The notes: generated from the letters alone by a model not told the origin. A stretch of 64,000 nt of DNA from an uncultured Rhizobiaceae group bacterium (GCA_937930845.1 CALHBJ010000008.1:121132-185131), one strand, 5' to 3'; numbered from the stretch's first letter, positions 7,023 through 57,277 are shown. Program-made: numbers and translations.

Positions 7023-7474
7023 CGGTTTGGCGGCCCCAACCGAAGATTATGGTCAAGGCACTTGGTCTGCTGATACGCGGCAAAAGCCTGTTTGCGGCCG
7101 AAGTCGTCAACGATGCTGGTGTTACAAAAGGAGTTCGCCCCCTGGGTGGCTCGGTTGAGTTTGGCGAAACCTGGCAGACGGCACTGGTAAGAGAGTTTCG
7201 CGAGGAACTCTCTGTCACGGCAGAAGTGACGGGCGCACCTATTGTGCTGGAGAATATCTTCACCCACGAGGACGCGCAGGGTCACGAGATCATCTTTGCT
7301 GCACGCATTCGTCTGCTAGAAAACGAGATACCCGGACCGGTAGTTCATTTTCAGGAAGACAATGGCGATACCTGCACAGCGCGATGGTTCGACATTTCCA
7401 AATTGAGCACGATGCACGGACCTGAACTCTTCCCGGTTGGTTTAAAGAGTGCACTTGAAGGGGAATTGGCATGA
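7019..7474 (+). CDS. NUDIX hydrolase
   Basis: Nudix box GGSVEFGETWQTALVREFREEL; ATGA overlaps on both sides. Confidence 0.88.
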   Translation: MTVWRPQPKIMVKALGLLIRGKSLFAAEVVNDAGVTKGVRPLGGSVEFGETWQTALVREFREELSVTAEVTGAPIVLENIFTHEDAQGHEIIFAARIRLLENEIPGPVVHFQEDNGDTCTARWFDISKLSTMHGPELFPVGLKSALEGELA

Positions 7475-8337: not shown

Positions 8338-8351
8338 TAAGGAGACTGATT

Positions 8352-9341: not shown

Positions 9342-9442
9342 GCGTGTCATTGCCAAACCCAAAACTGAATGTTGGTGAGGGAATTGACGCGACTGCGGGG
9401 CTGATCGATCAGTTTTGAATTGATCCGACCACTTGCAACACG

Positions 9443-10913: not shown

Positions 10914-11279
10914 CTAAAGGAGAATTCGCGGAGGTCTTTTACTGGGTTGGGCGCGTGTCCCGTCCCCACTTGTCAGCGATAAGAATGGCAAGCGCACCAT
11001 CTTCCAGCTTAGGCTGACCGGGTTGGCCTCGCTGACGCTGATATAGGGTGACAGACAAAGATCCACTGTGGTGTCCTTGGAGCCTGTTGGCTCACAACAC
11101 TTTTCACTGGCCTTATGAAATCCGCCCGTTACAGGGGGCACAGGACTGGTTGATTGCGCATCTGCCACCACAGCCGCCGCCAAAATGGGGCTGGTGAGAT
11201 GGCGTGCCATCACCTTGTGCGCACCGGAGGCGGTGAACATGAAAAGCGACAGCATCAAAAAAGTGACATAACGTAACAT
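10914..11279 (-). CDS. Small exported or membrane-targeted Cys-containing protein with C-terminal RPPR; candidate CutF/CruR/DUF2946-like leader
   Basis: Hydrophobic N-terminus, H..KCCEP..LCLSP, ends QPSKRPPRILL*; 55 nt upstream of the LDT start. Confidence 0.6.
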   Translation of the reverse strand: MLRYVTFLMLSLFMFTASGAHKVMARHLTSPILAAAVVADAQSTSPVPPVTGGFHKASEKCCEPTGSKDTTVDLCLSPYISVSEANPVSLSWKMVRLPFLSLTSGDGTRAQPSKRPPRILL

Positions 11280-11285
11280 GAGGAT

Positions 11286-11324
11286 TTTGTAGCACTAAAA
11301 CACTGAATGTCAGATGTATGTGAC
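11286..11324 (-). promoter_or_regulatory. Putative sigma70 promoter (possibly leaderless) with overlapping palindrome
   Basis: Minus strand CTGACA-N16-TACAAA-6 nt-ATG, no SD; GTCA-N8-TGAC palindrome at 11309-11324 overlaps the -35. Confidence 0.35.
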
Positions 11325-11354
11325 CACACAAATTCGTGAGCGGCCTTAAAAAAC

Positions 11355-12197
11355 TCAGATTCGGTCGCTGATTGCTGGATAGACGCCCAGGATACGTTTT
11401 TCCGCGCAGAAGAAATCCATCTCTTCCAGTGCCAAACGGACATTTTCCTGTTCTGGATGCCCTTCAATGTCGGCGTAGAACAGTGTTGCGGTAAATGTTC
11501 CACCCAATTGGTAGCTCTCCAGCTTGGTCATGTTGACCCCATTGGTGGCGAACCCGCCCATCACTTTGTACAGCGCTGCGGGTACGTTTTTCACACGGAA
11601 CACAAATGTGGTGATGGCGTCCCCTGCCTCGACAGGCGGAATTTGCGCTTCCCGCGATAGAATAACGAACCGCGTGGTGTTGTGATCGGCGTCTTCCACA
11701 TCACGTTTCAGAATATTGAGACCATATAATTCGGCTGCGAGTTCAGGCGCCAGGGCGGCGGCTTGCTTGTCCTGACGATCCGCGATCAGCCGTGCTGCCC
11801 CTGCCGTATCGCTGGCCGTTACCGCTTCCCAGCGGTGCTCACGGATGATGTTGCGGCACTGGCCCAGCCCATGAACATGGGAATAGACCGTCTTGATGTC
11901 TTCAATGCCCACACCCGGCAATGCCATGAGCTGAAAGCGAATGGGCAGGAAATATTCCCCAACAATGTGAAACCCTGAATGGGGCAAAAGATGGTGGATG
12001 TCGGCAACGCGACCGGCAATTGTGTTTTCGATCGGGATCATGGCCAGTTCAGCGACGCCCGATTGCAGCGCGTCGAAAGCATCTTCGAACGTTGCACAGG
12101 GCACCGGCGTCATTTCTGGATAAACATTGCGACAGGCGGTATCGGAATTCGCCCCCGGTTCGCCCTGGAAGGCGATGTTGCCAGTTTTATCGTTCAT
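11355..12197 (-). CDS. pheA: Prephenate dehydratase
   Basis: FQGEPGANS, IPIENT, SHVHGLGQC, NTTRF, NMTKLESY ACT domain. Confidence 0.95.
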   Translation of the reverse strand: MNDKTGNIAFQGEPGANSDTACRNVYPEMTPVPCATFEDAFDALQSGVAELAMIPIENTIAGRVADIHHLLPHSGFHIVGEYFLPIRFQLMALPGVGIEDIKTVYSHVHGLGQCRNIIREHRWEAVTASDTAGAARLIADRQDKQAAALAPELAAELYGLNILKRDVEDADHNTTRFVILSREAQIPPVEAGDAITTFVFRVKNVPAALYKVMGGFATNGVNMTKLESYQLGGTFTATLFYADIEGHPEQENVRLALEEMDFFCAEKRILGVYPAISDRI

Positions 12198-12249
12198 GAT
12201 TGGTCGATTGCCCTAAGAAATGCGGATTGAGTGTGCGAACAAGGTGCGA

Positions 12250-12987
12250 CTAGTTGTCCAACATGGCCCTTGCCCGTTCAAGATCGGCGGGAGTATCGAC
12301 ACCTAGCGGAACAGTGTCAACGAGGGCGGCATCAATGCGCATTCCGTCTTCGAGGGCGCGCAATTGCTCAAGCTTTTCGCGCAATTCCAATGCAGATGGC
12401 GGCAGGCTGACAAATCGCGCCAGGGCAGAGCGCCGCCAGGCGTAGAGGCCGATATGGTGATAAAGCGGGCCATCGCCATAGGGCGCGGTGGCACGGGTGA
12501 AATAAAGCGCCCGCAAACAGTTTTCAGCGCTCGGCGTTCCCACAAGTTTCACCACATTGGGGTTGGCCCTTTCTTCTTCCACAACTATTTCTGTTGCCAA
12601 TGTGGCGAGAGCCACGTCCTTGTTGTGCAAGGGAATCAAGCTGGCACGTATCGACATGCGGTCAATTGTCGGCAGATCGCCCTGGACATTGACGATGGTT
12701 TCAATTTCGCCCTTGGGGTCCAGTTTCTCAATGGCCTCAAATATCCTGTCTGACCCGGAAGGGTGGTCGGCGCGGGTTAAAACCGCTTCCCCGCCATGGC
12801 TTTGCACCGCCTTCATCACCTCAACAGAATCAGTGGCAACGACAACCGGTCCCACATCGGCCTCCTGGGCCCGTTTCATCACCTGCACGATCATGGGCAA
12901 ACCGGCGATATCCGCCATGGGTTTGTCTGGCAATCGTGTTGAAGCCATGCGCGCGGGGACCAAAACGAGGTTCTTGGAAAATGACAT
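12250..12987 (-). CDS. kdsB: 3-deoxy-manno-octulosonate cytidylyltransferase
   Basis: [45 protein letters not shown]. Confidence 0.96.
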
Positions 12988-13032
12988 GCCGATTATGCCT
13001 AAAAAGTCTCACAGAATGAGCGTTTATAGGTG

Positions 13033-13061
13033 TTGCAACGCCCAGACAAAAGACCTAGTTT
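13033..13061 (+). promoter_or_regulatory. Putative sigma70 promoter of cycM
   Basis: TTGCAA-N17-TAGTTT. Confidence 0.35.
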
Positions 13062-13144
13062 CCGCGCCGAACACCGGGCTTCCCCTATCAGCGGTATGAA
13101 CTGAACCGTGAGGCCCTTACCTTTGCGAATTCGGAGCCTGTCGC

Positions 13145-13693
13145 ATGGACTCTTTTGAGTGGAACAAAATTTTTGCAGCCCTGCTGACCATGGCATTTTT
13201 GGTGTTGGGCGTGAATTTTCTGGCGGAGGAGCTGTATCACAGCGATACGCCCAAGCAAGCCGGATATGTCATTGAAGGCGGTAAAGCAGAAGCATCGACC
13301 CAGGCCGCAGACACCGGGCCAGTGGTTGAACCCATTGCACCACTTTTGGCGTCTGCCGATTTGGCGCTTGGCGAAAAAGCGGCGAAAAAATGCGCCGCCT
13401 GTCACACATTTAATGAAGGTGGTGCCAATAAGGTTGGCCCTGGCCTCTATGGAATCGTTAACCGCCAGATGGCTGCCGTAGATGGATTTGGATATTCATC
13501 GGCACTGAAAGCCTATGGTGCAGACAAAACCTGGACTTATGACGAACTCAATGGATTCCTCTACAAGCCAAAAGACCACGTGAAGGGCACATCGATGGGC
13601 TTTGCTGGGCTGAAAAAAGTAGCCGAACGTGCGGCCATGGTTGCCTATCTGCGTTCTCTGGCAGCAACACCGGCACCTTTGCCGGAAGGCTAA
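13145..13693 (+). CDS. cycM: Membrane-anchored cytochrome c (CycM/c552)
   Basis: N-terminal TM helix, CAACH heme site, KVGPGL, GTSMGFAG axial Met. Confidence 0.9.
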   Translation: MDSFEWNKIFAALLTMAFLVLGVNFLAEELYHSDTPKQAGYVIEGGKAEASTQAADTGPVVEPIAPLLASADLALGEKAAKKCAACHTFNEGGANKVGPGLYGIVNRQMAAVDGFGYSSALKAYGADKTWTYDELNGFLYKPKDHVKGTSMGFAGLKKVAERAAMVAYLRSLAATPAPLPEG

Positions 13694-13721
13694 TTGCCCG
13701 AATATATCGCGAATATTGTTG

Positions 13722-13752
13722 AAAAGCCGGGTCTGCGATCCGGCTTTTTTTG
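13722..13752 (+). terminator. Intrinsic terminator
   Basis: AAAAGCCGG..CCGGCTTTTTTTGT after cycM. Confidence 0.8.
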
Positions 13753-13870
13753 TAGTTTAAATGCGACGAGTTGCGCATTTGGCTGCGCTGGTCACAGTTT
13801 CGTACCTTGACGTACACAATTGACTCCATAGTTTCATTTCAAACTCTTTTTGCCGTTCGGAGAAATGCCA

Positions 13871-15745
13871 GTGAAGTTTGTTTTGCGCTCTGTCCTCGCC
13901 CCCCTTGCCGTTTCACTTGTTCTTACCGGTGCATATGGTTCCACAACAGGTATGGCGCTGGAGAAAGTCTGGCACACCACCACTTCCCTGATCGGCACCA
14001 GCAAATATCAAGACAAATTCAAGCATTACGACCACGTAAATCCTGACGCTCCAAAGGGGGGGACGCTGAATTCCGCAGTTGTGGGCTCTTTCGACAGTTT
14101 CAACCCATTTGTTGTCAAAGGGCGCGCTGCCGCCGGACTGACCTCATTTGGTGGTATTTTGTGGGACACGCTCATGTCTCAAAGCGTTGATGAACCTGCC
14201 GTTTCCCACCCGCTGATTGGCAGCGAGTTCAGTTATCCCGACGACTTTTCAAGCGCCACCTACCGCCTCCATCCGGATGCAAAATGGCATGATGGAAAGC
14301 CAATTTCGGCCGAAGATGTTAAATGGTCGATGGAGACATTGAAGGCCCAGTCTCCCCAGCACGTGCGCTATTTTGCCAACGTTAAGGAAGTGATTGTCGA
14401 CAATCCCAAACAGGTGACCTTTGTCTTTGATCAAAAAGGCAATCGGGAATTGCCGCAGATCATGGGCGACCTGCCGGTGCTGCCCAAACACTGGTGGGAG
14501 GGAACCGATGCCAATGGCAAGAAACGCGACATTGGCGATTCCACACTGGAACCGCCGCTGGGCAGCGGGCCTTATCGCATAGCAAGTTTCAATACCGGTT
14601 CCAGCATCGAATGGGAAAGAGTGGCCGACTACTGGGCCAAAGACCTGCCCGTGCGCAAAGGCCGCTACAATTTTGACCGCCGGAAATACACCTATTTTGG
14701 CGACGAAAATGCGATCTTCATCGCCTTTCAAAAGGGTGGTTTCGAAGACATTCGTGATGAAAACCAGGCCAAACGCTGGGCGACGGAATATACGTTCCCG
14801 GCTGTGAAAGACGGTAAGGTGAAGCTGGAAGAATTTGACGAAACATCATCCTACCCGATGATCGGCTGGGTGCCGAACCTGCGCAAGGAATTGTTCCAGG
14901 ACCGCAATGTCCGCAAGGCACTGAACCTTGCTTTCAATTTTGAGCAAATGAACCGCGATCTGTTTTACGGTCAATATAACCGCACAGCCACATTCTTTGG
15001 CGGCACAGAAATGTCGTCAAGCGGCATGCCCGAAGGCCGGGAACTGGAAATATTGCAGAACTTCAAAGGCCGTGTTCCCGACGAATTATTCACTCAGCCC
15101 TATGAGCAGCCTGAGTACAAAGAGCGCAGTGATGCCCGCAAGTTCCTGCGCGAGGCGTTTCAGCTTCTCGGCAAGGCTGGCTGGAAGCGCGAGGGCTCGA
15201 AACTTGTAAACGAAAAGACCGGCAAACCCTTTGAGTTTGAAATATTGGGCAGCAATCCGGCGAGCGAACGGGTGAACGCCCCATGGATCAATGCGCTGAA
15301 ACGTTTGGGCATTACGGCCACACTGAGAATTGTAGACACGTCGCAATTTGTTCAAAGGTATCGCAACTTTGACTATGATGCGGTTGTGGCCGGTGCCATC
15401 CAGTCCAGTTCGCCGGGCAATGAACAACGGGATTACTGGTCCACCACGGCAGCTGATGAACCCGGTTCTCGTAATTGGGCGGGCATCAAGAACACGGTTG
15501 TAGATGAATTGGTGGACATGATTATCGCCGCAACGGATCGCGCCGAACTGGTGGCAGCAACACGGGCGCTGGACCGGATATTGTTGTTTGAACACTATTA
15601 CGTTTTGCAATGGCACCTGTCGAAAAGCCGGGTTGCCCGTTGGGATAAATTTGAAATTCCCCGGCCCCAACCTGAATTTCGTGGATATGATCAGGAAAGC
15701 TGGTGGATTGATCCCAAGAAGGCTGCGGCGACCGGTGGAAATTAG
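13871..15745 (+). CDS. yejA: YejA-like peptide ABC substrate-binding protein 1 (Sec-type signal)
   Basis: VNPDAPKGGTL, FDSFNPF, PPLGSGPY, RKVRKAL-like segment, DRILL; start GTG 13871 chosen from GGAG spacing. Confidence 0.88.
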   Translation: MKFVLRSVLAPLAVSLVLTGAYGSTTGMALEKVWHTTTSLIGTSKYQDKFKHYDHVNPDAPKGGTLNSAVVGSFDSFNPFVVKGRAAAGLTSFGGILWDTLMSQSVDEPAVSHPLIGSEFSYPDDFSSATYRLHPDAKWHDGKPISAEDVKWSMETLKAQSPQHVRYFANVKEVIVDNPKQVTFVFDQKGNRELPQIMGDLPVLPKHWWEGTDANGKKRDIGDSTLEPPLGSGPYRIASFNTGSSIEWERVADYWAKDLPVRKGRYNFDRRKYTYFGDENAIFIAFQKGGFEDIRDENQAKRWATEYTFPAVKDGKVKLEEFDETSSYPMIGWVPNLRKELFQDRNVRKALNLAFNFEQMNRDLFYGQYNRTATFFGGTEMSSSGMPEGRELEILQNFKGRVPDELFTQPYEQPEYKERSDARKFLREAFQLLGKAGWKREGSKLVNEKTGKPFEFEILGSNPASERVNAPWINALKRLGITATLRIVDTSQFVQRYRNFDYDAVVAGAIQSSSPGNEQRDYWSTTAADEPGSRNWAGIKNTVVDELVDMIIAATDRAELVAATRALDRILLFEHYYVLQWHLSKSRVARWDKFEIPRPQPEFRGYDQESWWIDPKKAAATGGN

Positions 15746-46368: not shown

Positions 46369-46803
46369 CTAATCGTCGCGCACCCGGCCTCTTAACTGTT
46401 TCACATTGCCGCGTTTGGTTTTGGAATCCATGCGCTTGCGCCGTGCATTCATGCTGGGGCGTGTGGGTTTGCGTTTTGGCGGTGGCGGCTTTGCGGCTTC
46501 TGCAATAAGTGCAATCAGGCGCTCGCGGGCGTCCTGACGATTACGCTCCTGGGTGCGGAAGCGCGTTGCCTGAATCATTATTTCACCCGCCGCATTCAAA
46601 CGCTGGCCCGCCAATTTTTCCAAACGGGCAATGATGGCAAATGGCAAAGTGGGAGCTGCGCGGGGATTGTACCGCAACTGAACGCCACTGGCGATCTTGT
46701 TGACATTTTGCCCCCCTGCGCCGCCCGACAGAATGAACCGCTCCGTCAGATCACTTTGAAGAATGTATAAATCGCCAGATATGGGGATACGAATTTCAGC
46801 CAT
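46369..46803 (-). CDS. arfB: Alternative ribosome-rescue factor ArfB
   Basis: GGAGGQNVNK, RTQERNRQDARERL, basic tail RKPTRPS..RRKRMDSK; true start 46803 (the longer ORF upstream is a shadow). Confidence 0.93.
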   Translation of the reverse strand: MAEIRIPISGDLYILQSDLTERFILSGGAGGQNVNKIASGVQLRYNPRAAPTLPFAIIARLEKLAGQRLNAAGEIMIQATRFRTQERNRQDARERLIALIAEAAKPPPPKRKPTRPSMNARRKRMDSKTKRGNVKQLRGRVRDD

Positions 46804-46893
46804 GCTCTGATTTAAACGTGTAGTGGGGCAATTGGAATTGACTTTAGCAATTGGTTTCCGAACATATGAACAAAGACAGCGACGAGGATCACC

Positions 46894-48705
46894 ATGGCCG
46901 AAATTAAGAAAACAAAAGACCAGCTGCGTTCCAAACTTTGGTTTGCCAATCCCGACGACATGGACATGACCGCACTTTATATCGAGCGGTACATGAACTG
47001 GGGGCTGACACGCGAAGAATTGCAATCCGGTAAACCCATCATCGGCATCGCCCAATCGGGCTCGGATTTGTCGCCCTGCAATCGCCATCACATTGTTCTG
47101 GCCGAACGGGTGCGCGAAGGCATTCGCGAGGCAGGCGGGATCGCGTTTGAGTTTCCGGTTCATCCCATTCAGGAAACCGGCAAACGGCCGACGGCCAATC
47201 TGGACCGCAATCTGGCCTATCTTGGCCTGGTGGAAACCCTGTTTGGCTATCCCCTGGACGGGGTCGTGCTGACAATCGGTTGTGACAAGACGACCCCTGC
47301 CATGCTGATGGCCGCAGCAACGGCCAACATTCCAGCCATCGCGCTTTCGGTCGGCCCCATGCTCAACGGGTGGTATAAAGGCCAACGCACCGGCTCCGGC
47401 ACCATTAAGTGGCATGCCAAGAAAGAGCTTTCGGCGGGCAATCTGAGCTACGAAGAATATACCGATATCGTGGCTTCCTCTGCGCCCTCCCCGGGCTATT
47501 GCAACACCATGGGCACCGCGACAACCATGAACTCCCTGGCTGAGGCACTTGGCATGTCGCTGGCCGGTTCCGCAGCCATCCCGGCGGTTCACAAAGAGCG
47601 GGCCAATATGGCCTATCATTCGGGCAAACGAATCGTCGACATGGTTTGGGAAGACGTGAAACCTTCCGACATCATGACCCGCGAGGCGTTCGAAAACGCA
47701 ATCGTGATCAATTCTGCCATTGGCGGTTCAACCAATGCTCCGATCCACCTCAAAGCCATCGCCAATCATTTGGGTGTGCGGCTGGACAATCAGGATTGGG
47801 AAGACCTGGGCTGGGACATTCCGCTATTGCTCAACCTTCAACCTGCAGGTGAATATCTGGGCGAGGACTATCACCATGCCGGCGGTGTTCCTGCAATTGT
47901 CAGTGAACTTGTGGGCGCAGGCAAACTGCCCAACCCGGATGCCATGACTGTTACTGGCAAGAGCATTGGCGAAAACTGCAGCGGTGCAGAAGTAATGGAT
48001 CGCAACGTGATCTGGCCGTTTGACAAGCCGATGATGCAAAAGGCGGGCTTTTTGAATTTGAAGGGCAATCTTTTCGCCACCGCGATCATGAAAACATCGG
48101 TGATTTCCGACGAATTTCGCGAGCGCTATTTGTCCAACCCGGATGATCCAAATGCGTTTGAAGGTCGCGCGGTGGTGTTTGATGGCCGTGAAGACTATCA
48201 CGCGCGCATCGATGACCCTGCACTGGAGATTGATGAATATACTTTGTTGTTCATTCGCGGCGCCGGTCCCATTGGTTATCCAGGTGGGGCAGAAGTGGTG
48301 AACATGCAGCCGCCTGCCGCTTTGCTGAAACGGGGCATCACGTCTTTGCCTTGTATCGGCGATGGCCGCCAATCGGGAACATCCGGCTCGCCCTCGATTC
48401 TCAACGCATCACCGGAAGCCGCTGTGGGCGGGGGTCTTGCCCTGTTGGAAACAGGTGACCGGGTGCGTATTGACCTCAATACCCGCGAGGCAAACATTTT
48501 GCTGTCGAACGAAGAACTGGCTGCAAGGCAAGAGGCCGTGAACGCCAAGATTGCCAATGGTGGCCTGGATTATGTCCCCGCCCATCAGACCCCATGGCAG
48601 GAAATCCAGCGCGGCATGGTTGAGCAATTTGAAGAAGGCATGGTGCTCAAACCGGCCACGAAATATCGCGATGTGGCCAAGATTATCCCCCGGGATAACC
48701 ACTGA
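46894..48705 (+). CDS. IlvD/Edd-family sugar-acid dehydratase (XylD/galactonate/arabinonate type)
   Basis: [41 protein letters not shown]; N-terminus resembles C. crescentus XylD. Confidence 0.92.
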
Positions 48706-48729
48706 CTTCACGCTACAGAAGGAATAAAC

Positions 48730-49119
48730 ATGCGTAAGGGACTGCAAATTGCACTGGGAATCCTGTCATTGATTCCGATTTCTTTTGCAATATTAGGTGT
48801 CGTGACCGGCACCGGATTTTTCGTTGAGGCCAATGTGAATGTCGCCCGGCTGGACAATATGTTCCGCTATCTTTCCGGAACCTACATTCTGGTCACCCTG
48901 TTGTTGTGGTGGGCCATTCCTCAAATCGAGCGTGTTGGAACACTTCTCTCGCTGATTTGTGTCGCGCTTGTTCTGGGTGGCATCGGACGGCTTGTGTCGG
49001 TGATGACGGTTGGTCCCGGCGATGCCATGCAATTTGCCGGCATGGTGCTGGAACTGGGTTCGCCCCTGTTTCTGCTATGGCAAAGAGCGGTGGCCAGACA
49101 ATACGCTTCATCCCAATAA
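48730..49119 (+). CDS. DUF4345-like membrane protein
   Basis: 4 TM helices; LDNMFRYLSG, GGIGRLVS, ELG. Confidence 0.7.
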   Translation: MRKGLQIALGILSLIPISFAILGVVTGTGFFVEANVNVARLDNMFRYLSGTYILVTLLLWWAIPQIERVGTLLSLICVALVLGGIGRLVSVMTVGPGDAMQFAGMVLELGSPLFLLWQRAVARQYASSQ

Positions 49120-49131
49120 AAGAGACACCAA

Positions 49132-50004
49132 ATGACCCGCTCAACGCTCTCTTCATTCGGTCCCGCCTGCACGTTGGGGGAAGGACCGCTATGGCATCCG
49201 CTGCGCGAACAATTATTCTGGTTTGACATTCCAAAGGGGCTGTTGATCTGTAGCAACATACTCGGCGGACAACAGCGACAGTGGAATTTTGGCGAACCGG
49301 CATCAGCTGCAGGCTGGATCGATGAGGATACTTTGGTCGTGGCCACGTCCAGCGGCCTGCACAGGTTCGATATCGCATCAGGACGCTGGGATACCATCGC
49401 CGGATTGGAGGCCCAGAACGACAGCACCCGCTCAAATGATGGTCGTATCGCACCCGATGGCTCGTTCTGGATTGGCACCATGGCGTGTGATCTTGCTGCC
49501 AAAAAAGGGGCATTTTATCGCTATCATGCAGGCAGCATGACCCAGTTGATCGGGTCAGTCTCCGTGCCCAACGCCACCTGTTTTTCACCCGATGGGCGCA
49601 CCGCCTATCTTGCTGACACGTTCAATCAGATTATCTGGAAATGGGCGTTGGATGAAAACGGCGCACCCATGGGTGAATATGAAACCCATATCGACCTGCG
49701 TGGGGACAATCTCAACCCGGACGGGGCGGTATGCGACAGCGAAGGTTATTTATGGAATGCCCAATGGGGTGCGTCCCGCGTTGCCCGCTACGCACCGGAT
49801 GGAACATTGGACTCCACGATTGAGCTGCCGGTCAGCCAACCCACATGCCCGGCATTTGGTGGCAATGATCTTAAAACGCTATACGTGACTTCCGCAAAAG
49901 AAGGACTTTCAGCCGCCGAACTGGAAAAACAACCCGATGCGGGCAAGGTTTTCATGATTTCGGTGGATGTTCCAGGCCTCGCCGAACATCCGTTCAAAGG
50001 GTGA
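49132..50004 (+). CDS. SMP-30/gluconolactonase-family sugar lactonase
   Basis: LGEGPLW, RSNDGR, PNATCFSPD, PDGAVCDSEG, PTCPAFGG. Confidence 0.92.
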   Translation: MTRSTLSSFGPACTLGEGPLWHPLREQLFWFDIPKGLLICSNILGGQQRQWNFGEPASAAGWIDEDTLVVATSSGLHRFDIASGRWDTIAGLEAQNDSTRSNDGRIAPDGSFWIGTMACDLAAKKGAFYRYHAGSMTQLIGSVSVPNATCFSPDGRTAYLADTFNQIIWKWALDENGAPMGEYETHIDLRGDNLNPDGAVCDSEGYLWNAQWGASRVARYAPDGTLDSTIELPVSQPTCPAFGGNDLKTLYVTSAKEGLSAAELEKQPDAGKVFMISVDVPGLAEHPFKG

Positions 50005-50163: not shown

Positions 50164-50208
50164 GCGCACTGCGTGATCATGCCCTTCGACAAGACCAAGG
50201 AGGGTATC

Positions 50209-50622
50209 ATGTCACCAGCTCAGTCTCATTCGCTCAACGAGACCACCGTTCCAATTCCTGAAAGTCTGTTCGGGCAACTTGCTCAGGCAGAACCGGCGGA
50301 TGCGGTGGAAATTGCCAGTCAATTGCCAATTGCCAATCGGGCCAAGCTCGCCGCATTTTGCTACAGTCGGCGTCACCTCAATCATCTGGGACTCCTGATT
50401 GCTTCAACGTGCGACCGCATGGCGCTTCGACGCGCCATGGGCCACGCAGGCGATGTGTTGTTCAAACAATCCCGCGATGTTGAAAAAACCATCGCTGCCG
50501 AGCGCGGTCGTCAGGCATCGTCCACGAAAATTACCCTTGCAACAGCCGCCAATGTGGTTCCATTGCGCCAGTCGGTGATTGAAGAGCTTGACGCAGAAGA
50601 CGGTGGCGAAGACATCGCCTAG
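50209..50622 (+). CDS. Hypothetical protein
   Basis: GGAGG RBS; LAAFCYSRRHL..LGLLIASTC segment; acidic tail; own terminator. Confidence 0.7.
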   Translation: MSPAQSHSLNETTVPIPESLFGQLAQAEPADAVEIASQLPIANRAKLAAFCYSRRHLNHLGLLIASTCDRMALRRAMGHAGDVLFKQSRDVEKTIAAERGRQASSTKITLATAANVVPLRQSVIEELDAEDGGEDIA

Positions 50623-50653: not shown

Positions 50654-50810
50654 TAATGGGAATTTGTGGCGCTCAATGCGCGGGGCACAATATCCCTTTT
50701 TGCGGCTTCTAAATGAAGCCAACACACCTTTGGTCTTTGAAACATCCTGGCTGACTGGCATATAGTGCCACTAGAAGCGGTTCGCCGCGCGTTTGTTGAT
50801 AGACCCAATT

Positions 50811-51509
50811 ATGACATTTGCTTTCGATCCACCCGCCGTGGCCACAATGCCAATTGCGGATGAAGACACCCGATTTCCCATTCGCCGCGTATTTTGCGTG
50901 GGCCGCAATTATGCCGACCATGTGGTGGAAATGGGCGGCGACCCAGACCGTGAAGAACCGTTTTTCTTTTGCAAACCTGCAGATGCGGTAAGCCATGGCA
51001 GGGATGACATCCCCTACCCCTCCCGCACAATGGATTTGCACCACGAGATGGAATTGGTCATCGCCATTGGCACCGGTGGCACAAATATAAAGGAATCAGA
51101 CGCCCTGACCCATGTGTTCGGTTTTGCAGCCGGGGTTGATTTGACCCGCCGTGACTTGCAGGCGGAAGCAAAGAAACGCGGGCGTCCCTGGGACATGGCC
51201 AAGGGCTTTGACCTGTCGGCACCCATGAGCGCGATCCGCCGCTCCAAAGCTGGCGGCAAAGAAGGTGATGCCGGTTTCATCCGCTTGGCGGTCAATGGCG
51301 AAACACGTCAGGATGGTGACCTTGGGCAACAGGTCTGGAAGGTTTCAGAGATCATCGCCAATCTCTCCACCTATGTGGAACTGAAGGCTGGCGATCTGAT
51401 CATGACCGGTACGCCAGCCGGCGTTGGGCCGCTGGCGATTGGCGATGTTGTATCAGGTGAGATTGAAGGCATTGGTTCGGTTCGCTTCACGATGACCCAG
51501 CGCCCATGA
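50811..51509 (+). CDS. Fumarylacetoacetate-hydrolase family (NagK/FAHD1-like)
   Basis: CVGRNYADH, FFFCKP, HHEMEL, DLTRRDLQ, KGFD, GDLIMTGTPAGVG. Confidence 0.9.
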   Translation: MTFAFDPPAVATMPIADEDTRFPIRRVFCVGRNYADHVVEMGGDPDREEPFFFCKPADAVSHGRDDIPYPSRTMDLHHEMELVIAIGTGGTNIKESDALTHVFGFAAGVDLTRRDLQAEAKKRGRPWDMAKGFDLSAPMSAIRRSKAGGKEGDAGFIRLAVNGETRQDGDLGQQVWKVSEIIANLSTYVELKAGDLIMTGTPAGVGPLAIGDVVSGEIEGIGSVRFTMTQRP

Positions 51510-52954
51510 GCCATTCATTCGATTACCGCCATTGGTCTCACAAGGCGGCCGATTGGGGCGCAGATTATCTGGAAAGCCTTGACAAGAGACCCGTTCGACC
51601 ACGGGTAAAGCCTGGGGCCATTGCTTCGCAGATTGCCAGCGCCGCACCCGAAACCGGCGAAGCCATGGATGCCATATTTGAGGATTTTCAATCGATCATT
51701 CCAGATGGAATGACCCATTGGCAGCATCCGCGCTTCTTCGCCTATTTTCAGTCCAATGCGGCCCCGGTTGCGCAGGTTGCCGAGCAATTGGCAACAGCAT
51801 TTGCCTCCCAGTGCATGCTTTGGCAAACCTCGCCGGCGGCAACCGAGCTTGAAGTGAAAATGGTGGACTGGCTGCGACAGGCAGTCGGGCTCCCAGATGG
51901 CTTTAGCGGCACGTTCCAGGACACGGCTTCTTCAGCCACCCTGTGCGCCATTTTGACCATGCGCGAAAAAGCCCTGGGCTTTACCGGCAATCAACAGGGG
52001 CTGTTTGGGCGCAAACCTTTGCGTGTTTATGCCTCCGGACGCACCCATTCTTCCATCGACAAGGCGATGTGGATTGCCGGACTGGGACAGGACAATCTCG
52101 TTAAAATTCCAACGGGTGATGGGCCCTTATTTCCCATGGACGCGGAAAAATTGCGCCAGGCAATCAAGGATGATCGTGCAAACGGTTTTCAGCCTGCCGG
52201 TATCGTCATCTGTGTTGGCGGCACCTCCATTGGTGCCACCGACAATGTGGCTGAGATTTGTGCCATTGCTCAAGAAGAAGGCCTGTACACCCACCTGGAT
52301 GCAGCCTGGGCCGGATCGGCGATGATCTGTCCTGAATTCCGCCATTTATGGGAAGGGGCGGAGCTTGCGGATTCAATTGTCCTGAACCCGCATAAATGGC
52401 TTGGCGTTCCCATGGAATGTTCGCTTCATCTGGTGAGAGAACCGGAGCTTTTATTGCGCACTATGGCCATTCGCCCCTCCTATCTCGACACGCCTTCTCA
52501 GAAAGTCGGCGGGGGTGATGGCATCGTCAATTTCTCGGAATGGTCGGTTCAACTGGGGCGGCGGTTTCGCGCGCTAAAAGTTTGGTTTCTGCTGCGCAGT
52601 CACGGGCTGGACGATCTGCGCACACGCATTCGCAATCATGTGGCCTGGTCCCAGGAACTGGCAGGCAGATTGGGCACGCTGGCAGAATTTGAAATTACAA
52701 CGGAACCGGTTCTGTCCCTGTTTTCGTTTCGGCACATGGTCCCGGACCTGTCGGTGGATGAGTTGAATGCCCACAACATCAATCTTGTTGACGCCATCAA
52801 TAATGACGGCCGGATTTATCTCACCCAGTCCACCCATGAGGGAAATATGGTCATTCGGTTTGTGGCCGGGCAGTTCGACATGCAAAAAGCAGATATCGAC
52901 ATTGCCTTTGATGCGATAACGCAAGTCGCCAGCAAGCTGATCTCAAAAGTGTAG
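51506..52954 (+). CDS. Group II PLP decarboxylase, aromatic-L-amino-acid decarboxylase-like
   Basis: HWQHPRFFAYF, SPAATELE, HSSIDKA, HLDAAWAG, NPHKW (PLP Lys), LGRRFRALK. Confidence 0.88.
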   Translation: MSHSFDYRHWSHKAADWGADYLESLDKRPVRPRVKPGAIASQIASAAPETGEAMDAIFEDFQSIIPDGMTHWQHPRFFAYFQSNAAPVAQVAEQLATAFASQCMLWQTSPAATELEVKMVDWLRQAVGLPDGFSGTFQDTASSATLCAILTMREKALGFTGNQQGLFGRKPLRVYASGRTHSSIDKAMWIAGLGQDNLVKIPTGDGPLFPMDAEKLRQAIKDDRANGFQPAGIVICVGGTSIGATDNVAEICAIAQEEGLYTHLDAAWAGSAMICPEFRHLWEGAELADSIVLNPHKWLGVPMECSLHLVREPELLLRTMAIRPSYLDTPSQKVGGGDGIVNFSEWSVQLGRRFRALKVWFLLRSHGLDDLRTRIRNHVAWSQELAGRLGTLAEFEITTEPVLSLFSFRHMVPDLSVDELNAHNINLVDAINNDGRIYLTQSTHEGNMVIRFVAGQFDMQKADIDIAFDAITQVASKLISKV

Positions 52955-52957
52955 ATC

Positions 52958-54133
52958 ATGAACACATCCACTTTGAAAACTGCGTCCATCACCGCACGCC
53001 TTGCCTCACTGGGGTCTGAACGTTGGGCGGTGCACTTCGATGCGCGCAGACGCATCAAGGCCGGACAGGACATTATTGAACTGACTATTGGCGAACCGGA
53101 CGTGCCCACACCGGAACATTTGCTGGATGTGGCCACCGGGTCCATGCGTGCCGGACGTACACGATATGCCGAAGGGCGTGGCGAACCTGTTCTGCTTGCT
53201 GCACTTGCAGAAAAATATTCACAGCGCAGTGGCCGTCAGGTCAGCGTGGACAACGCGCTTGCATTTCCCGGCACTCAGGCAGCACTTGCCATCACCATGA
53301 TGGGGTTGGTGGAAGCGGGAGACGCCGTGCTGGTTCCTGACCCCTATTATGCCACCTATGAAGGCGTGGTGCGCAGCACAGGTGCGGATTTTGTACCCGT
53401 GGCCATGTCGGCGGATAATGGTTTTCATTTGACCCCCGAACAGCTGGAAAAGGCGGTTACGCCAAATTCAAAAGTGCTGCTGTTGAATTCTCCCCACAAC
53501 CCCACCGGTGCGACACTGTCGCGATCTGAAATTGAGGCGATTGGGGCGGTGGCGATAAAGCATGACTTATGGATCGTCAGCGACGAAGTCTATGAACCTC
53601 TGATTTACAATGGCGAATTTTGCTCCCCGTTTGATCTGGAAACGCTTTGGGAACGCACCATCGCGGTTTCTTCCATTTCAAAAAGCCATGCGGCCCCCGG
53701 CTTCCGCGCCGGATGGGGCGTTGGGCCCGCCTGGGCCATGCGCCACATTCAGTCGGTTTCGGAAACGCTGCTATTTGGTGGCCAGCCCTTTATTGCCGAT
53801 ATGACAGCCCATGCGCTTAGCCATCGCGATAACACAGCACAGGTAATGGGCAGTGCCTACCAGCGCCGCATACAGGTGTTGAAGTCAGCATTTGCCGAAA
53901 ACGAGGTTTTACGGCCACTTGAACCGGACGCTGGTATGTTCATGCTGGTGGACGTGACCGCATCCGGTCTGGATGGGGAAAGTTTTGCCAAGCAATTGCT
54001 GGACCATGGTGTCGCGGTGATGCCGGGCAGTTCGTTTGGAAATCAGGCCCGCCACTTTATCCGGCTGAGCCTGACCGTCGATGAAACGCTGCTTGCAGAA
54101 GCTGCCAGGCGCATGGTTTCCTTTACCAACTAA
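52958..54133 (+). CDS. Class I/II PLP aminotransferase (AruH-like)
   Basis: WAVHF, IGEPD, NSPHNPTG, SDEVY, SISKSH..PGFRAGW, FIRLSL. Confidence 0.88.
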   Translation: MNTSTLKTASITARLASLGSERWAVHFDARRRIKAGQDIIELTIGEPDVPTPEHLLDVATGSMRAGRTRYAEGRGEPVLLAALAEKYSQRSGRQVSVDNALAFPGTQAALAITMMGLVEAGDAVLVPDPYYATYEGVVRSTGADFVPVAMSADNGFHLTPEQLEKAVTPNSKVLLLNSPHNPTGATLSRSEIEAIGAVAIKHDLWIVSDEVYEPLIYNGEFCSPFDLETLWERTIAVSSISKSHAAPGFRAGWGVGPAWAMRHIQSVSETLLFGGQPFIADMTAHALSHRDNTAQVMGSAYQRRIQVLKSAFAENEVLRPLEPDAGMFMLVDVTASGLDGESFAKQLLDHGVAVMPGSSFGNQARHFIRLSLTVDETLLAEAARRMVSFTN

Positions 54134-54157
54134 CATGATGATGATTTGGAGATTTTG

Positions 54158-55000
54158 ATGAGCGACATATTCGAGCAAAGCACTTTCTTCAAAGCCCACC
54201 GGCACGGTGCGGTGGTTCATGTGAAGATGAACCGGCCAGAAAAGGCCAATGGCATGTCGCCGGACTTCTGGACTGACCTGCCCCTGATCATGGCAGCATG
54301 TGATGTTGACCCAACGGTGCGGGCCGTGGTGATCAGCGGCGCAGGACGCCACTTTTCTGGCGGTATGGATCTGGCCACGTTTGGCGACATACAGACATTG
54401 CTCACCCATGAGCCGGGGCGTGCTGCCTATGCGATGCGCGACATGGTGCTCAGTCTGCAGAAGAGCCTCAGCAGTCTGGAAGAATGCCGTGTGCCGGTCA
54501 TCTGTGCGATCCATGGCGCTTGTCTTGGGGCGGGGATTGACCTGATCACTGCCGGTGACATTCGCATGGCCAGTGCAGATGCGAGCTTTGGCATTGAGGA
54601 AATTCACGTGGGCATGGCAGCCGACGTGGGCACGCTTCAGCGCATGCCGAAAATCATGCCAGCAGGCATCGTCAGTGAGTTGGCCTATACCGGCCGCCGA
54701 TTTTCTGCCGATGAAGCAAAGTCCTGGGGATTGGTGAATTCGGTTCATGAAAATGGCGAAGCAACGCTGGTTGCGTCTCTTGATCTGGCGCAGGAAATTG
54801 CCGAAAAATCGCCATTGGCGATTGCCGGCATCAAGCGGGCAATTACCTATGCCCGCGATCACAGCGTTGCAGATTCGCTGGACCAGATCGCCACCTGGAA
54901 CAGCGGCATGTTGAGGCCGGAAGAACTAACCAAAGCGATTGCTGCCAAAATGAGCAAGCAACAGGCGGTGTTTGATGACCTGTTGGCGGATGCCGTATAA
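54158..55000 (+). CDS. Crotonase/enoyl-CoA hydratase family (dienoyl-CoA isomerase-like)
   Basis: MNRPEKAN, FSGGMDL, IHGACLGAGIDL, EIHVGMAADVGTLQRM. Confidence 0.88.
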   Translation: MSDIFEQSTFFKAHRHGAVVHVKMNRPEKANGMSPDFWTDLPLIMAACDVDPTVRAVVISGAGRHFSGGMDLATFGDIQTLLTHEPGRAAYAMRDMVLSLQKSLSSLEECRVPVICAIHGACLGAGIDLITAGDIRMASADASFGIEEIHVGMAADVGTLQRMPKIMPAGIVSELAYTGRRFSADEAKSWGLVNSVHENGEATLVASLDLAQEIAEKSPLAIAGIKRAITYARDHSVADSLDQIATWNSGMLRPEELTKAIAAKMSKQQAVFDDLLADAV

Positions 55001-55081: not shown

Positions 55082-55696
55082 CTACTCCTGGTTTTTCGAC
55101 TCTGCCAATTGTTGTTCCAGATCAGCAATTCGTGCCTGAAAACGATGGATGACTTCACGGACATCGCCAATTGTGTAGCGCTCTGTAATGTGTTGCGGGC
55201 AGTTCCAGTCAAAGGCTTCAAGTGTAAACACGATTGCCCGCTCAACCTTGGCTGAATAGTCCACGTCACGGATGGCCTTTGCCAACGCCTCGTCAGTCTC
55301 AAGATTGACAATTTCGGCGTGGGCCAGGACTTTCAGGCGCTGCTTGTTGGTATAATCCATGAAGATCAAAGATACGCGCGGATCAGCCTGAAAATTGCCA
55401 ATGCTTACATATTGGCGATTGCCCCGATAATCGGCGATGGCAAAGCGCCTGGCATCCAGCACTTTGACAAAACCAACCGGCCCGCCCCGGTGTTGCATGT
55501 AAGGCCAGCCACTCTTGCTGATACTTGCCATATAGAAACTGTCGCGCGCTGAAATGAACCCGGCTTCCGCTGCGGTAAAATGATCCGCCTCAGCGGCCTG
55601 TCCTTCGCCGTGGCTGTAGGCTGAACGGCTGCCATTTTGCTCCTGCAATGCCTTCACATCATCAGTGAACACGATATCCTGATAGTGTCGGGTCAT
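55082..55696 (-). CDS. Pyridoxamine-5'-phosphate-oxidase-like FMN-binding protein
   Basis: RDSFYMAS..GWPYMQHRGGP.GF, DYRGNRQY.S.GN, DWNCPQHI. Confidence 0.85.
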   Translation of the reverse strand: MTRHYQDIVFTDDVKALQEQNGSRSAYSHGEGQAAEADHFTAAEAGFISARDSFYMASISKSGWPYMQHRGGPVGFVKVLDARRFAIADYRGNRQYVSIGNFQADPRVSLIFMDYTNKQRLKVLAHAEIVNLETDEALAKAIRDVDYSAKVERAIVFTLEAFDWNCPQHITERYTIGDVREVIHRFQARIADLEQQLAESKNQE

Positions 55697-55705
55697 CTGG
55701 TTTCC

Positions 55706-56131
55706 TTAGCGTTTGCGACAATAAAGTTCGAGCCGGTGGTGGACCACTTCATAGCCCAGCTCACGCGCGATTTCGGCCTGAAGCCGTTCGATCTTTTCCG
55801 ACTGAAACTCTATCACATGCCCCGTGTCCAGATCGATGATGTGGTCGTGGTGGGGGGCGTCTGCGGTTTCAAACCGTGCCGGCTCCCCTTCGAAGGACAA
55901 GCGATGGACAACACCGTTTTTCTCCAGCTCACTCATGGTGCGATATATTGTGGTCAGTGACACATCATCATCCAGCACGCGCGTGCGGCGGTGCAATTCA
56001 TTGGCATCTGGATGATCGTCCGAGGACGACAGGGCCAGCAAAACTGCTTTTCGCTGGCGCGTGGCCTTAAGGCCACTGGCACGCAAGATTTCGATGAGTT
56101 CATCATATCGCGATTGCGGTTTTCCAGCCAT
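55706..56131 (-). CDS. mur: Fur-family regulator, probably Mn-responsive Mur
   Basis: GLKATRQR, HPDA.EL, SLTTIYRT, HHDHIID; divergent from sitABCD. Confidence 0.88.
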   Translation of the reverse strand: MAGKPQSRYDELIEILRASGLKATRQRKAVLLALSSSDDHPDANELHRRTRVLDDDVSLTTIYRTMSELEKNGVVHRLSFEGEPARFETADAPHHDHIIDLDTGHVIEFQSEKIERLQAEIARELGYEVVHHRLELYCRKR

Positions 56132-56214
56132 GTATCTGCTTTCGATATTCGGGACGATCTGCGGCGAAAATTACCTGGGTATTTTTCGCACCTTGTTTGA
56201 CCAGTTCAATTCCA

Positions 56215-56263
56215 ATTGCAACGCATTCGCAATAGCTAATTGCAAATCATTCTCATTTGCATT
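56215..56263. promoter_or_regulatory. Tandem Mur/Fur-type operators
   Basis: ATTGC-N9-GCAAT (56215-56233); ATTGCAAATCATTCTCATT (56239-56257) within the perfect TGCAAAT-N7-ATTTGCA (56241-56261); abuts the -35. Confidence 0.75.
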
Positions 56264-56289
56264 GACATAGTGAGATTTCAAACCATATT
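56262..56289 (+). promoter_or_regulatory. sigma70 promoter of sitABCD
   Basis: TTGACA-N16-CATATT. Confidence 0.55.
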
Positions 56290-56380
56290 GTCTCCTGCTG
56301 AGCGTTCAAAAAGCTTTTTTGGGCAATCATGCGCGTTTCCGGAGCGTTTTTCGGGTAAATTCAATATTTGGAGCACCTGT

Positions 56381-57277
56381 TTGGGCAATTTCATCAAACT
56401 TGTTTTCTCAATTGTCGCGCTGGCATTGATGACAATACCGGTGCAGGCAGCGAACAAATTCAAGGTCGTGACCACCTTTACGGTGATTGCAGATATGGCG
56501 CGCAATGTTGCAGGCGATGTGGCGCAAGTGGATTCAATCACCAAACCGGGCGCGGAAATTCACAATTACCAGCCCACCCCAGGTGATATTCTCAAAGCCC
56601 AAGGGGCCGACCTTGTATTGTGGAATGGTTTGAATCTGGAATTGTGGTTTGAGAAGTTCTTTCAAACCCTCGCCGACGTGCCCGGCGTGGTGGTGTCTAA
56701 AGGTGTTGAACCCATGGGCATCGGCCAGGGGCCCTATAGCGGCAAACCCAATCCCCATGCATGGATGTCACTGGAATCGGCGCTGATCTATGTCGACAAT
56801 ATTCGTGACGCCCTCACCAAATATGACCCTCCCAATGCCGAGGCGTATCGGGCCAATGCCCAGGCTTACAAGGAACGCATTCGCATGGCCCTGGAGCCCC
56901 TGCGCGCCCGGATTGCAAACGTGCCTGAAGATGCCCGCTGGCTGGTCACAAGTGAAGGGGCGTTCAGTTATCTTGCCCGGGACTTTGATCTGAAGGAATT
57001 GTATTTGTGGCCCATCAATGCCGATGCGCAGGGCACACCAAAACAGGTGCGCAACGTTATCCGCACCATGCGGCGGCAGAACATCAACGTCATATTTTCG
57101 GAATCGACGGTCTCACCCCGTCCTGCCCAACAGGTGGCGCGGGAAACAGGTGCCCGCTATGGCGGCGTCTTATATGTGGATTCCCTGTCGGCTCCCGATG
57201 GGCCAACACCCACCTATCTCGATCTGCTGCGGGTCACGGTTCAAACAATTGCTGATGGACTGGAAGCAGGGGAATGA
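56381..57277 (+). CDS. sitA: Mn/Fe ABC substrate-binding protein
   Basis: [33 protein letters not shown]; TTG start after GGAG. Confidence 0.92.

Follow-up and report, generated by a model that had tools for sequence, protein, structure and literature searches.

The arginine:pyruvate transaminase pathway of Pseudomonas aeruginosa consists of the transaminase AruH and the 2-ketoarginine decarboxylase AruI; amine transaminases normally belong to class III. [quoted passage not shown] One bacterial orthogroup of AADCs, to which the gene described below belongs, is very large, with thousands of homologues at more than 60% identity, and in its rhizobial clade the decarboxylase gene lies inside operons for homoprotocatechuate (hpa) degradation in 14 of the 80 loci collected from outside the genus studied here. 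The gene order in those 14 loci is hpaF-hpaE-hpaD-decarboxylase-hpaG-hpaH(-hpaI), they are spread over several subclades, and their HpaD, HpaE and HpaH proteins score above the respective NCBIfam cut-offs. Genes for HpaBC, class III aminotransferases, GS-like ligases and GATases are found close by, the aminotransferases and the ligases being candidates for turning the arylamine into an aldehyde in these clusters.

The window analysed here is a stretch of 64,000 nucleotides from an uncultured bacterium of the Rhizobiaceae group. It contains a string of four enzyme genes (Table 1) in the order FAH hydrolase (FAH), decarboxylase (DC), aminotransferase (AT) and crotonase. The ORF listing, the translations and the junction sequences agree with the preliminary description in that four genes share a strand and are spaced by -4, 3 and 24 nt, though not with the order in which its title listed them. 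FAH and DC overlap in the sequence ATGA, the DC/AT junction reads TAG-ATC-ATG, and the 24 nt lie between AT and the crotonase. FAH was taken to begin with ATG, an upstream TTG at 50793 being possible, and the ATG of the crotonase is preceded by GGAG. No convincing internal terminator was seen in the four-gene string, and the GC content is unremarkable. The promoter-like site found by consensus scanning 45 nt upstream of the FAH start is weak evidence, because such sites are no commoner than in shuffled sequence. The upstream gene orf149, whose product is 72–82% identical across the genus, had no Pfam or NCBIfam match.

Table 1. Features of the locus (positions counted from the first nucleotide of the window)
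Feature	Assignment	Position	Strand	Basis or remark
orf149	Conserved 149-aa protein	50173..50622	+	Invariant upstream neighbour of the locus
Promoter-like site	TTGAAA-18-TATAGT	50737..50766	+	Consensus scan
FAH	Short fumarylpyruvate hydrolase/acylpyruvase (FAHD1, YcgM) type	50811..51509	+	PF01557, 3.8e-51, 174 bits
DC	Eukaryotic-type aromatic L-amino acid decarboxylase (group II PLP)	51506..52954	+	PF00282, 2.4e-82, 277 bits
AT	AruH-family class I aminotransferase (arginine:pyruvate transaminase type)	52958..54133	+	PF00155, 5.6e-61, 207 bits
Crotonase	ECH1-type delta3,5-delta2,4-dienoyl-CoA isomerase-like	54158..55000	+	PF00378, 1.9e-41

We predict that DC is a true decarboxylase of the AADC type. 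It combines the PF00282 fold with the NPHK Lys, the PLP-stacking His and the pyridine-N Asp of the group II PLP AADC/DDC enzymes, and its translation contains the motifs IRPSYL, QLGRRFR and NPHKW. The loop Tyr and the Gly of LGRRFR previously ascribed to it are both present. K297, H181 and D265 are invariant across 94 orthologues; these residues, Y326 and G351 are kept in 17/17 sequences from the genus. Position 326, the loop Tyr, is Phe in 16 of the 94 orthologues elsewhere. The closest solved relative in the PDB search was 7xin (1.2e-112), followed by plant TDC/TyDC enzymes (1e-93 to 1e-87) and animal DDC. The alignment with 7xin, 6eew and 6eem spans the Lys, His and Asp motifs, with Y326 (PSYL) falling on the PSYL Tyr of 7xin and the PEYL Tyr of 6eew. 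The search gives 7xin only the name "DOPA decarboxylase"; it is probably the DOPA decarboxylase from Pseudomonas putida KT2440, which is reported to be highly specific for L-DOPA (Koyanagi et al. 2012, Microbiology 158:2965, cited in PMC8712285).

As for substrate specificity, Ser83 of DC aligns with Ser101 of PsTyDC. The pocket departs from those of characterised AADCs in having Gln102 and Met104 for Val/Ile and Phe, and Gln82 for the usual Pro, which leaves room for a different substrate. The Gly in LGRRFR is no safe pointer to Trp: 7xin, deposited as a DOPA decarboxylase, has PLGRRFR as well, and the plant Gly/Ser rule should not serve for calling Trp specificity in bacteria. The same Gly, which occupies the "indolic" position of the plant enzymes (bioRxiv 10.1101/404970), would favour a role for DC in making a secreted bioactive amine (tryptamine toward IAA, dopamine or phenethylamine) for an algal or animal host, and not in catabolism. 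The clade of DC is a marine one (among its members are Granulosicoccaceae, homologues named Pseudahrensia or Ahrensia, and MAGs labelled Rhizobiaceae or Hyphomicrobiales), and within it the gene context of DC is variable and free of catabolic partners, both of which are consistent with such a role. We nevertheless regard it as very unlikely: the cluster contains neither an exporter gene nor one for indole-acetaldehyde dehydrogenase or another IAA step, hpa genes are the only known conserved partners of the DC orthogroup, and the genome itself carries hpaBCDE. Nothing at the locus points to auxin, which the preliminary description had suggested.

Our preferred reading, to which as a whole we give an even chance, is that DC supplies an amine for catabolism, that it stands beside an unrelated orphan AruH-type enzyme, and that FAH and the crotonase are variable passengers in an operon-like string which is not one conserved pathway. 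DC would decarboxylate L-tyrosine, L-DOPA or both, giving tyramine or dopamine, which enzymes encoded elsewhere (flavin amine oxidases or class III aminotransferases) would oxidise. The hpaBC/hpaD/hpaE genes would then serve to degrade the resulting 4-hydroxyphenylacetate and homoprotocatechuate. AT may be an alpha-amino-acid:pyruvate transaminase for arginine-like substrates that does not use its neighbour's amine.

The hpa genes of this genome are 130 kb away from DC on the same contig. HpaD (422 bits, cut-off 321) and HpaE (797, cut-off 638) are encoded at C8:302-305 kb, and the whole hpaBC/D/E/R set, including HpaB (532 bits, cut-off 480) and HpaC-like and HpaR-like proteins, occupies C8:302-307 kb; HpaH-, HpaG- and HpaF-like matches occur elsewhere in the genome. 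DC itself is outside the hpa operon, none of the four genes of the string scores above the cut-off of any hpa family, and no member of the marine clade to which DC belongs was seen inside an hpa operon. The DC cluster has no amine oxidase or omega-transaminase gene, and a search of the genome for copper amine oxidases found none. The genus was sampled as this genome plus 24 relatives, 17 of the genomes having DC and 8 lacking it. HpaD was detected in 13/17 of the DC-bearing genomes versus 2/8 of the others; two of the four DC-bearing genomes in which it was undetected are less than 85% complete.

The likeness of AT to AruH, proposed earlier from its N-terminus, is upheld by the name arginine:pyruvate transaminase that JGI gives to its close homologues, and by the AruI-type ThDP decarboxylase gene that directly follows it in 17/29 orthologues of other genera. 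The two ThDP partners that were scored are both above the AruI family cut-off (NF005712). AT has the class I/II fold of the AruH family, and an alignment with Thermus AspAT matches its PLP Lys (in SKS), Asn (NSPHNPTG), Tyr (DEVY) and alpha-carboxylate Arg (IRLS). Its best NCBIfam match, at 250 bits and below the cut-off of 415, is GntC, a member of this family that works on an arginine derivative. AruI adjoins AT in none of the 19 genus loci and no protein of the genome scores above the AruI cut-off; the genus ATs differ from the AruI-linked ones at just 4 distinguishing positions. By descent AT is an AruH orthologue whose AruI pathway context has been lost here. Its retention of the alpha-carboxylate Arg predicts alpha-amino acids, not arylamines, as substrates.

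This bears directly on the pathway first put forward for the locus, in which an amino acid becomes an arylamine and then an aldehyde; in the version weighed here the adjacent AT makes the aldehyde, and FAH and the crotonase act downstream. The common strand, the short gaps and the lack of a clear internal terminator speak for it. Yet the aldehyde step would fall to a class I enzyme with an alpha-carboxylate Arg whose orthologues partner AruI, while the aminotransferases beside the hpa-linked decarboxylases are of class III. Nor are the two outer genes conserved with the DC-AT pair. FAH adjoins DC in only 8/17 DC-bearing genomes of the genus, and in relatives the crotonase is often absent or split from AT by an opposite-strand gene for an acetyl-CoA hydrolase/transferase, so that both are changeable neighbours even inside the genus.

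FAH, which had been likened to NagK/FAHD1, is of the short type: its one FAH C-terminal domain, roughly 230 aa long, resembles solved members from end to end, and its PDB matches bear out the comparison: 4maq (2.4e-83; 282 bits over residues 16-238), 6j5y (6.6e-65) and FAHD1 (5.6e-44). No NCBIfam equivalog matched it at cut-off. Copies adjoining DC in the genus are 65–73% identical, those elsewhere 47–56%. The crotonase is, by its sequence, an ECH1-type dienoyl-CoA isomerase, scoring 327 bits against NF004794 (cut-off 308) and matching 1dci at 2.4e-66 over 257 residues; its D, E and D line up with residues 124, 144 and 152 of the 1dci chain, which at a constant offset of 52 are the acidic ECH1 active-site residues Asp176, Glu196 and Asp204 of the rat numbering. 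That the crotonase is of a type auxiliary to fatty-acid metabolism also counts against the first-proposed pathway, which we consider highly improbable. DC most likely feeds a ring-cleavage pathway encoded elsewhere, and AT is of the arginine type and should not use amines, so the locus is not a novel amine or auxin pathway of four steps, and the tight spacing of the four genes should not be taken for one.

The survey of cluster conservation that the preliminary description had called for gave a divided answer: FAH and the crotonase proved variable, but in all 17 DC-bearing genomes sampled from the genus, this one among them, DC lies next to AT. The two genes overlap by a few nt or are up to about 35 nt apart, while both flanks vary. 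Such constancy is compatible with real functional coupling. The two enzymes might share one alpha-amino acid, either in sequence (2-keto acid to amino acid to amine) or as alternative first steps, with a PLP decarboxylase standing where AruI stands elsewhere. In keeping with this, DC never occurs without AT in the sampled genus, homologues of the two are found on equal-sized contigs down to about 69% (DC) and 65% (AT) identity, as in Ahrensia sp. R2A130, and the genome is without AruI. However, adjacency is seen nowhere outside this one marine genus and, being limited to one lineage, may be merely inherited. Two genomes (G007 and G019) retain AT alone at the same locus, directly downstream of orf149 with FAH and DC absent between them; outside the genus, DC orthologues were never found with this AT, nor AT orthologues with this DC. 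AT has undergone almost no group-specific change relative to its AruI-linked orthologues, and AruH-type enzymes are arginine-type whereas DC is aromatic-type. Coupling on a common amino acid thus seems unlikely to us, although, if true, it would represent a new transaminase plus PLP-decarboxylase amine route in marine Alphaproteobacteria. A more specific idea, which we hold quite doubtful, is that DC and AT form a new two-enzyme module in this Ahrensia/Pseudahrensia-like genus. AT would aminate a 2-keto acid and DC would decarboxylate what it yields, or the reverse, so that the module makes or removes the amine of some uncommon amino acid, perhaps a non-aromatic one or one with a guanidino group; the altered pocket (Gln82, Gln102 and Met104) would reflect that substrate.

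If catabolism of tyrosine or L-DOPA is the correct reading, the locus adds little beyond a marine member of a very abundant bacterial AADC orthogroup, whose probable job would be to channel Tyr or L-DOPA into homoprotocatechuate degradation. It would also be a clean example of an AruH transaminase whose AruI has been lost.

Each of the four enzymes can be set against a known system. FAH has the same single-domain fold as the NagK-type and FAHD1-YcgM acylpyruvases (4maq, 6sbi and 1nr9), but no gentisate genes are near it, and the DC-adjoining copies are a diverged subset of the genus FAHs. The crotonase has the three acidic active-site residues of mitochondrial/peroxisomal ECH1 (1dci), but is bacterial and has no fatty-acid genes alongside. 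AT resembles the P. aeruginosa AruH-AruI system through its orthologues (47–61% identity), which occur in TetR-AT-AruI(-DDAH-like) operons, and differs from it in having a PLP decarboxylase upstream in place of any AruI. With 7xin, DC shares the eukaryotic-type group II PLP fold (aligned over residues 6-468), the NPHKW Lys, the HSS His, the PSYL Tyr, the LGRRFR Gly and the Ser at YF(P/Q)S, while roughly half of the residues differ, among them Gln82, Gln102, Cys103 and Met104 of the pocket, which are Pro, Leu, Gly and Leu in 7xin. DC can also be compared with the hpa-embedded AADCs of Rhizobiaceae, Phyllobacteriaceae and Stappiaceae. These are flanked by hpaD and hpaG where DC is flanked by FAH and AruH, but they belong to the same orthogroup, have the same catalytic residues at 59–64% identity, and fall within the clade to which the marine clade of DC is sister.

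The four genes lie in the order hydrolase (FAH), decarboxylase (DC), aminotransferase (AT) and crotonase (ECH), and not in that of the preliminary description, whose coordinates, spacings and motifs (PSYL, LGRRFR) all agree with the open reading frames, translations and junction sequences; NPHKW is present in DC as well. FAH and DC overlap at ATGA, DC and AT are joined by TAG-ATC-ATG, and 24 nt separate AT from the crotonase gene, the ATG of which is preceded by GGAG. The GC content of 50811-55000 is unremarkable. A consensus scan located no convincing internal terminator in the four-gene string, and only a promoter-like site, at chance level, 45 nt 5' of the FAH gene.

Features of the four-gene string and its surroundings; positions are those of the window, or of its contig (C8) and extracted stretches of that contig (L117, L118)
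Feature	Position	Strand	Length	Match
FAH-family hydrolase (FAH)	50811-51509	+	232 aa counted from ATG	PF01557 3.8e-51
Group II PLP decarboxylase (DC)	51506-52954	+	482 aa	PF00282 2.4e-82
Class I aminotransferase (AT)	52958-54133	+	391 aa	PF00155 5.6e-61
Crotonase (ECH)	54158-55000	+	280 aa	PF00378 1.9e-41
orf149	50173-50622		149 aa	
IlvD/Edd-family dehydratase, DUF4345, SMP-30 lactonase	46894-50004			NF009560, 1011 bits (dehydratase)
Shadow ORF	46369-47619	-	416 aa	
PNPOx-like flavoprotein, Fur-family regulator, metal ABC system	55082-57277	- (first two), then divergent		
2,4-didehydro-3-deoxy-L-rhamnonate hydrolase-type FAH	C8:189428-190273 (L118:4429-5274)			431 bits, under family cut-off
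Choline-sulfatase, HpaD, HpaE; then HpaR-like regulator, HpaB, HpaC-like reductase	C8:300700-308200 (L117:6729-14141)	- (first three); + (last three)		

The setting of the four genes is heterogeneous. Upstream are genes for DapD, a LOG-family protein, a GTPase, the dehydratase, DUF4345, the SMP-30 lactonase and orf149; downstream are the PNPOx-like gene, convergent with that of the crotonase, the Fur-family regulator and a ZnuA/MntC-type metal ABC transporter. The dehydratase, DUF4345 and lactonase genes, together with the rhamnonate hydrolase-type FAH gene 4 kb past the window, resemble components of a sugar-acid pathway into which FAH-DC-AT-ECH and the metal-uptake genes intrude. The ORF antisense to the dehydratase gene was rejected as a gene and is considered a shadow ORF, since its matches in relatives occur only where those of the dehydratase do. 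The product of orf149 is hydrophilic, matches no Pfam or NCBIfam family and is 72-82% conserved in the genus, where the gene is always immediately 5' of the DC/AT locus; a hairpin (GGCGGCA-CCTT-TGCCGCC) directly follows its stop codon.

Conservation was surveyed in 24 sampled relatives of the window's genus, the window's own genome being counted apart unless stated; Pseudahrensia aquimaris and Ahrensia sp. R2A130 are the sources of the named homologues. Sixteen of the 24 carry DC, followed directly by AT in every case. FAH directly precedes DC in seven of the 16 (8/17 with the window), such copies being 65-73% identical to that of the window, against 47-56% for copies located elsewhere in other genomes. 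The crotonase gene is adjacent in some relatives; in others an acetyl-CoA hydrolase/transferase gene on the opposite strand intervenes, and in some there is no crotonase gene within 8 kb of the locus; in one genome (G008) the Fur-ZnuA block lies directly 3' of AT, without a crotonase gene. In two nearly complete genomes (G007, G019) orf149 is followed directly by AT, without FAH or DC, and the five sampled genomes that lack AT also lack DC. DC-AT is the only stable pair, and AT can stand alone. Because the flanks vary around an unvarying pair, DC and AT might truly be coupled on one amino acid, an explanation which we regard as unlikely.

Outside the genus, AT was never found beside DC in 80 DC-orthologue loci from other taxa (59-68% identity), save in re-sampled members of the window's genus, nor was DC ever beside AT in 29 orthologues of AT (47-61% identity) drawn from 13 further genera of the order. 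Directly 3' of AT in 17 of the 29 is a ThDP enzyme, often with a TetR regulator gene 5' and a DDAH-like gene nearby. Two of these ThDP enzymes, scored against NF005712 (5-guanidino-2-oxopentanoate decarboxylase, AruI), gave 725 and 703 bits (cut-off 500). This synteny and these scores identify AT as an AruH orthologue with AruI as its ancestral partner. Close homologues of AT are labelled arginine:pyruvate transaminase by JGI, and its top NCBIfam model, under cut-off, is that of the arginine-derivative enzyme GntC. In an alignment with Thermus AspAT (4e-60) AT keeps the PLP Lys, Asn, Tyr and alpha-carboxylate Arg, with Gln at the position of Thermus Lys109. No AruI above cut-off was found in the window's genome (best score 308 bits); where some members of the genus do possess one, it is 44 kb away or on a different contig. 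Comparison of specificity positions revealed only four, all conservative, that differ between the ATs of the genus and those linked to AruI, and hence no sign of retooling. AT would be an orphan AruH whose substrates are alpha-amino acids. The preliminary interpretation is supported in part, but its step in which this adjacent enzyme serves as the amine transaminase appears very unlikely.

FAH matches the putative fumarylpyruvate hydrolase 4maq over its full length (2.4e-83), and FAHD1 and YcgM are also among its relatives. The crotonase exceeds the NF004794 cut-off and resembles rat dienoyl-CoA isomerase (1dci, 2.4e-66), whose three acidic active-site residues it retains. A functional link between DC and FAH was rejected: FAH-family genes flank DC in three arrangements that involve three different subfamilies, namely 4maq-type (window), HpaG-like (homoprotocatechuate catabolic, or hpa, operons) and rhamnonate-hydrolase-like (Rhizobium tropici-type loci), for which reason the neighbourhood is treated as coincidental or context-specific. 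FAH and the crotonase would be passengers, maybe co-transcribed in this strain.

Comparison with the PDB gave as the best solved relative of DC the 'DOPA decarboxylase' 7xin (1.2e-112), which we take to be the P. putida enzyme, followed by plant TDC/TyDC (1e-93 to 1e-87) and animal DDC (1e-84); the match to decarboxylases of acidic amino acids and of diaminobutyrate is far weaker (1e-43 or worse). The PLP Lys, stacking His and loop Tyr are all present in the alignments, as is the LGRRFR Gly. The plant AAAD pocket and its three variable positions have been defined (bioRxiv 10.1101/404970): at CrTDC 370 Gly favours indolic and Ser phenolic substrates, and the p-hydroxyl-binding residue is the one at position 103 of CrTDC (PsTyDC Ser101). 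Gly351 of DC is the indolic-type residue of the former position, as the preliminary description had noticed. This Gly is no argument for Trp in bacteria, because 7xin likewise has PLGRRFR and the P. putida DOPA decarboxylase is reportedly highly L-DOPA-specific (Koyanagi 2012, as cited in PMC8712285). Ser83, which aligns with the hydroxyl-binding Ser of PsTyDC, hints weakly at phenolic substrates. Since the pocket is otherwise unlike those of characterised AADCs, we infer the substrate rather than assign it. Met104 is invariant across the orthogroup, and Gln102 nearly so. Gln82, found in the window's genus, was discarded as a genus-specific change tied to AT, position 82 being variable (Q/T/S/P/N) across a marine clade of orthologues. 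Literature searches on AADC with homoprotocatechuate and on the 7xin structure yielded nothing usable.

In 14 of the 80 loci outside the genus, DC is embedded in an hpa operon, hpaF-hpaE-hpaD-DC-hpaG-like-hpaH(-hpaI), whose genes are 0-70 nt apart. These loci include Shinella, Ensifer/Sinorhizobium, Aquamicrobium, one Mesorhizobium, one Roseibium and several MAGs; the operon proteins score above cut-offs (HpaD 422 bits/321, HpaE 782/638, HpaH 447/351), and HpaB/HpaC and AraC and MarR regulators are encoded nearby. Six of the 14 loci also have a class III aminotransferase gene paired with one for an APH-type kinase, and in L087, L093 and L098 (about 11000-14500) the operon is closely followed by genes for a glutamine-synthetase-like ligase, a class I GATase and a P450. 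Either the aminotransferase or the ligase/GATase/P450 set is a plausible candidate for arylamine handling, which the ligase/GATase and aminotransferase/kinase pairs suggest may be gamma-glutamyl or transaminase-based. A maximum-likelihood tree of the DC orthogroup resolved two clades. The rhizobial clade (60 rows) holds every hpa-embedded copy, spread over four or more subclades, the earliest-branching among them; the marine clade (34 rows) comprises the window's genus, Granulosicoccaceae and marine Hyphomicrobiales, and shows no recurrent DC partner, its neighbours varying among M20 peptidase, DUF454, DnaE2-like, GST, Na/H exchanger and class V aminotransferase genes. In the Mesorhizobium loci L055-L102 (about 3700-8000) a cassette for a circularly permuted ATP-grasp, an alpha-E, a transglutaminase-like protein and a proteasome-type subunit lies 5' of DC, and DeoR-GlpD-ABC genes 3', which is another fixed, functionally opaque setting.

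The window's contig carries, 130 kb from DC, genes for HpaD (422/321), HpaE (797/638), an HpaR-like regulator, HpaB (532/480) and an HpaC-like protein, and this genome has HpaF-, HpaG- and HpaH-like genes dispersed over further contigs. Judged by gene content, it can probably use the predicted products of DC. With the window's genome and the 24 relatives taken together, HpaD was found in 13 and not in four of those with DC, and in two and not in six of those without, a positive association, yet among phylogenetically non-independent genomes. A genome search found no copper amine oxidase; it did recover several genes of the flavin amine-oxidase family and seven for class III aminotransferases, none of which is close to the cluster. 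We give about an even chance to the whole reading, in which DC would convert Tyr or L-DOPA to tyramine or dopamine for breakdown via the hpa genes 130 kb away, beside an orphan AruH and passenger FAH and crotonase. For the auxin-type or host-signalling pathway originally envisaged no positive evidence emerged, and such a role for DC is improbable.

The loop Tyr (PEYL) is replaced by Phe (PEFL), with the His kept, in 16 of 94 DC orthologues (L048, L049, L053, L057, L058, L066, L067, L068, L075, L082, L088, L099, L101, L103, L105 and L106; DC at about 8001-9400 in most). Two of these are hpa-embedded, and the substitution occurs sporadically among close relatives, for instance within Mesorhizobium. 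Because a single loop Tyr to Phe change turns the plant decarboxylase into an aromatic acetaldehyde synthase (bioRxiv 10.1101/404970), the PEFL orthologues could, by analogy, be natural bacterial aldehyde synthases for which an amine oxidase is not needed.
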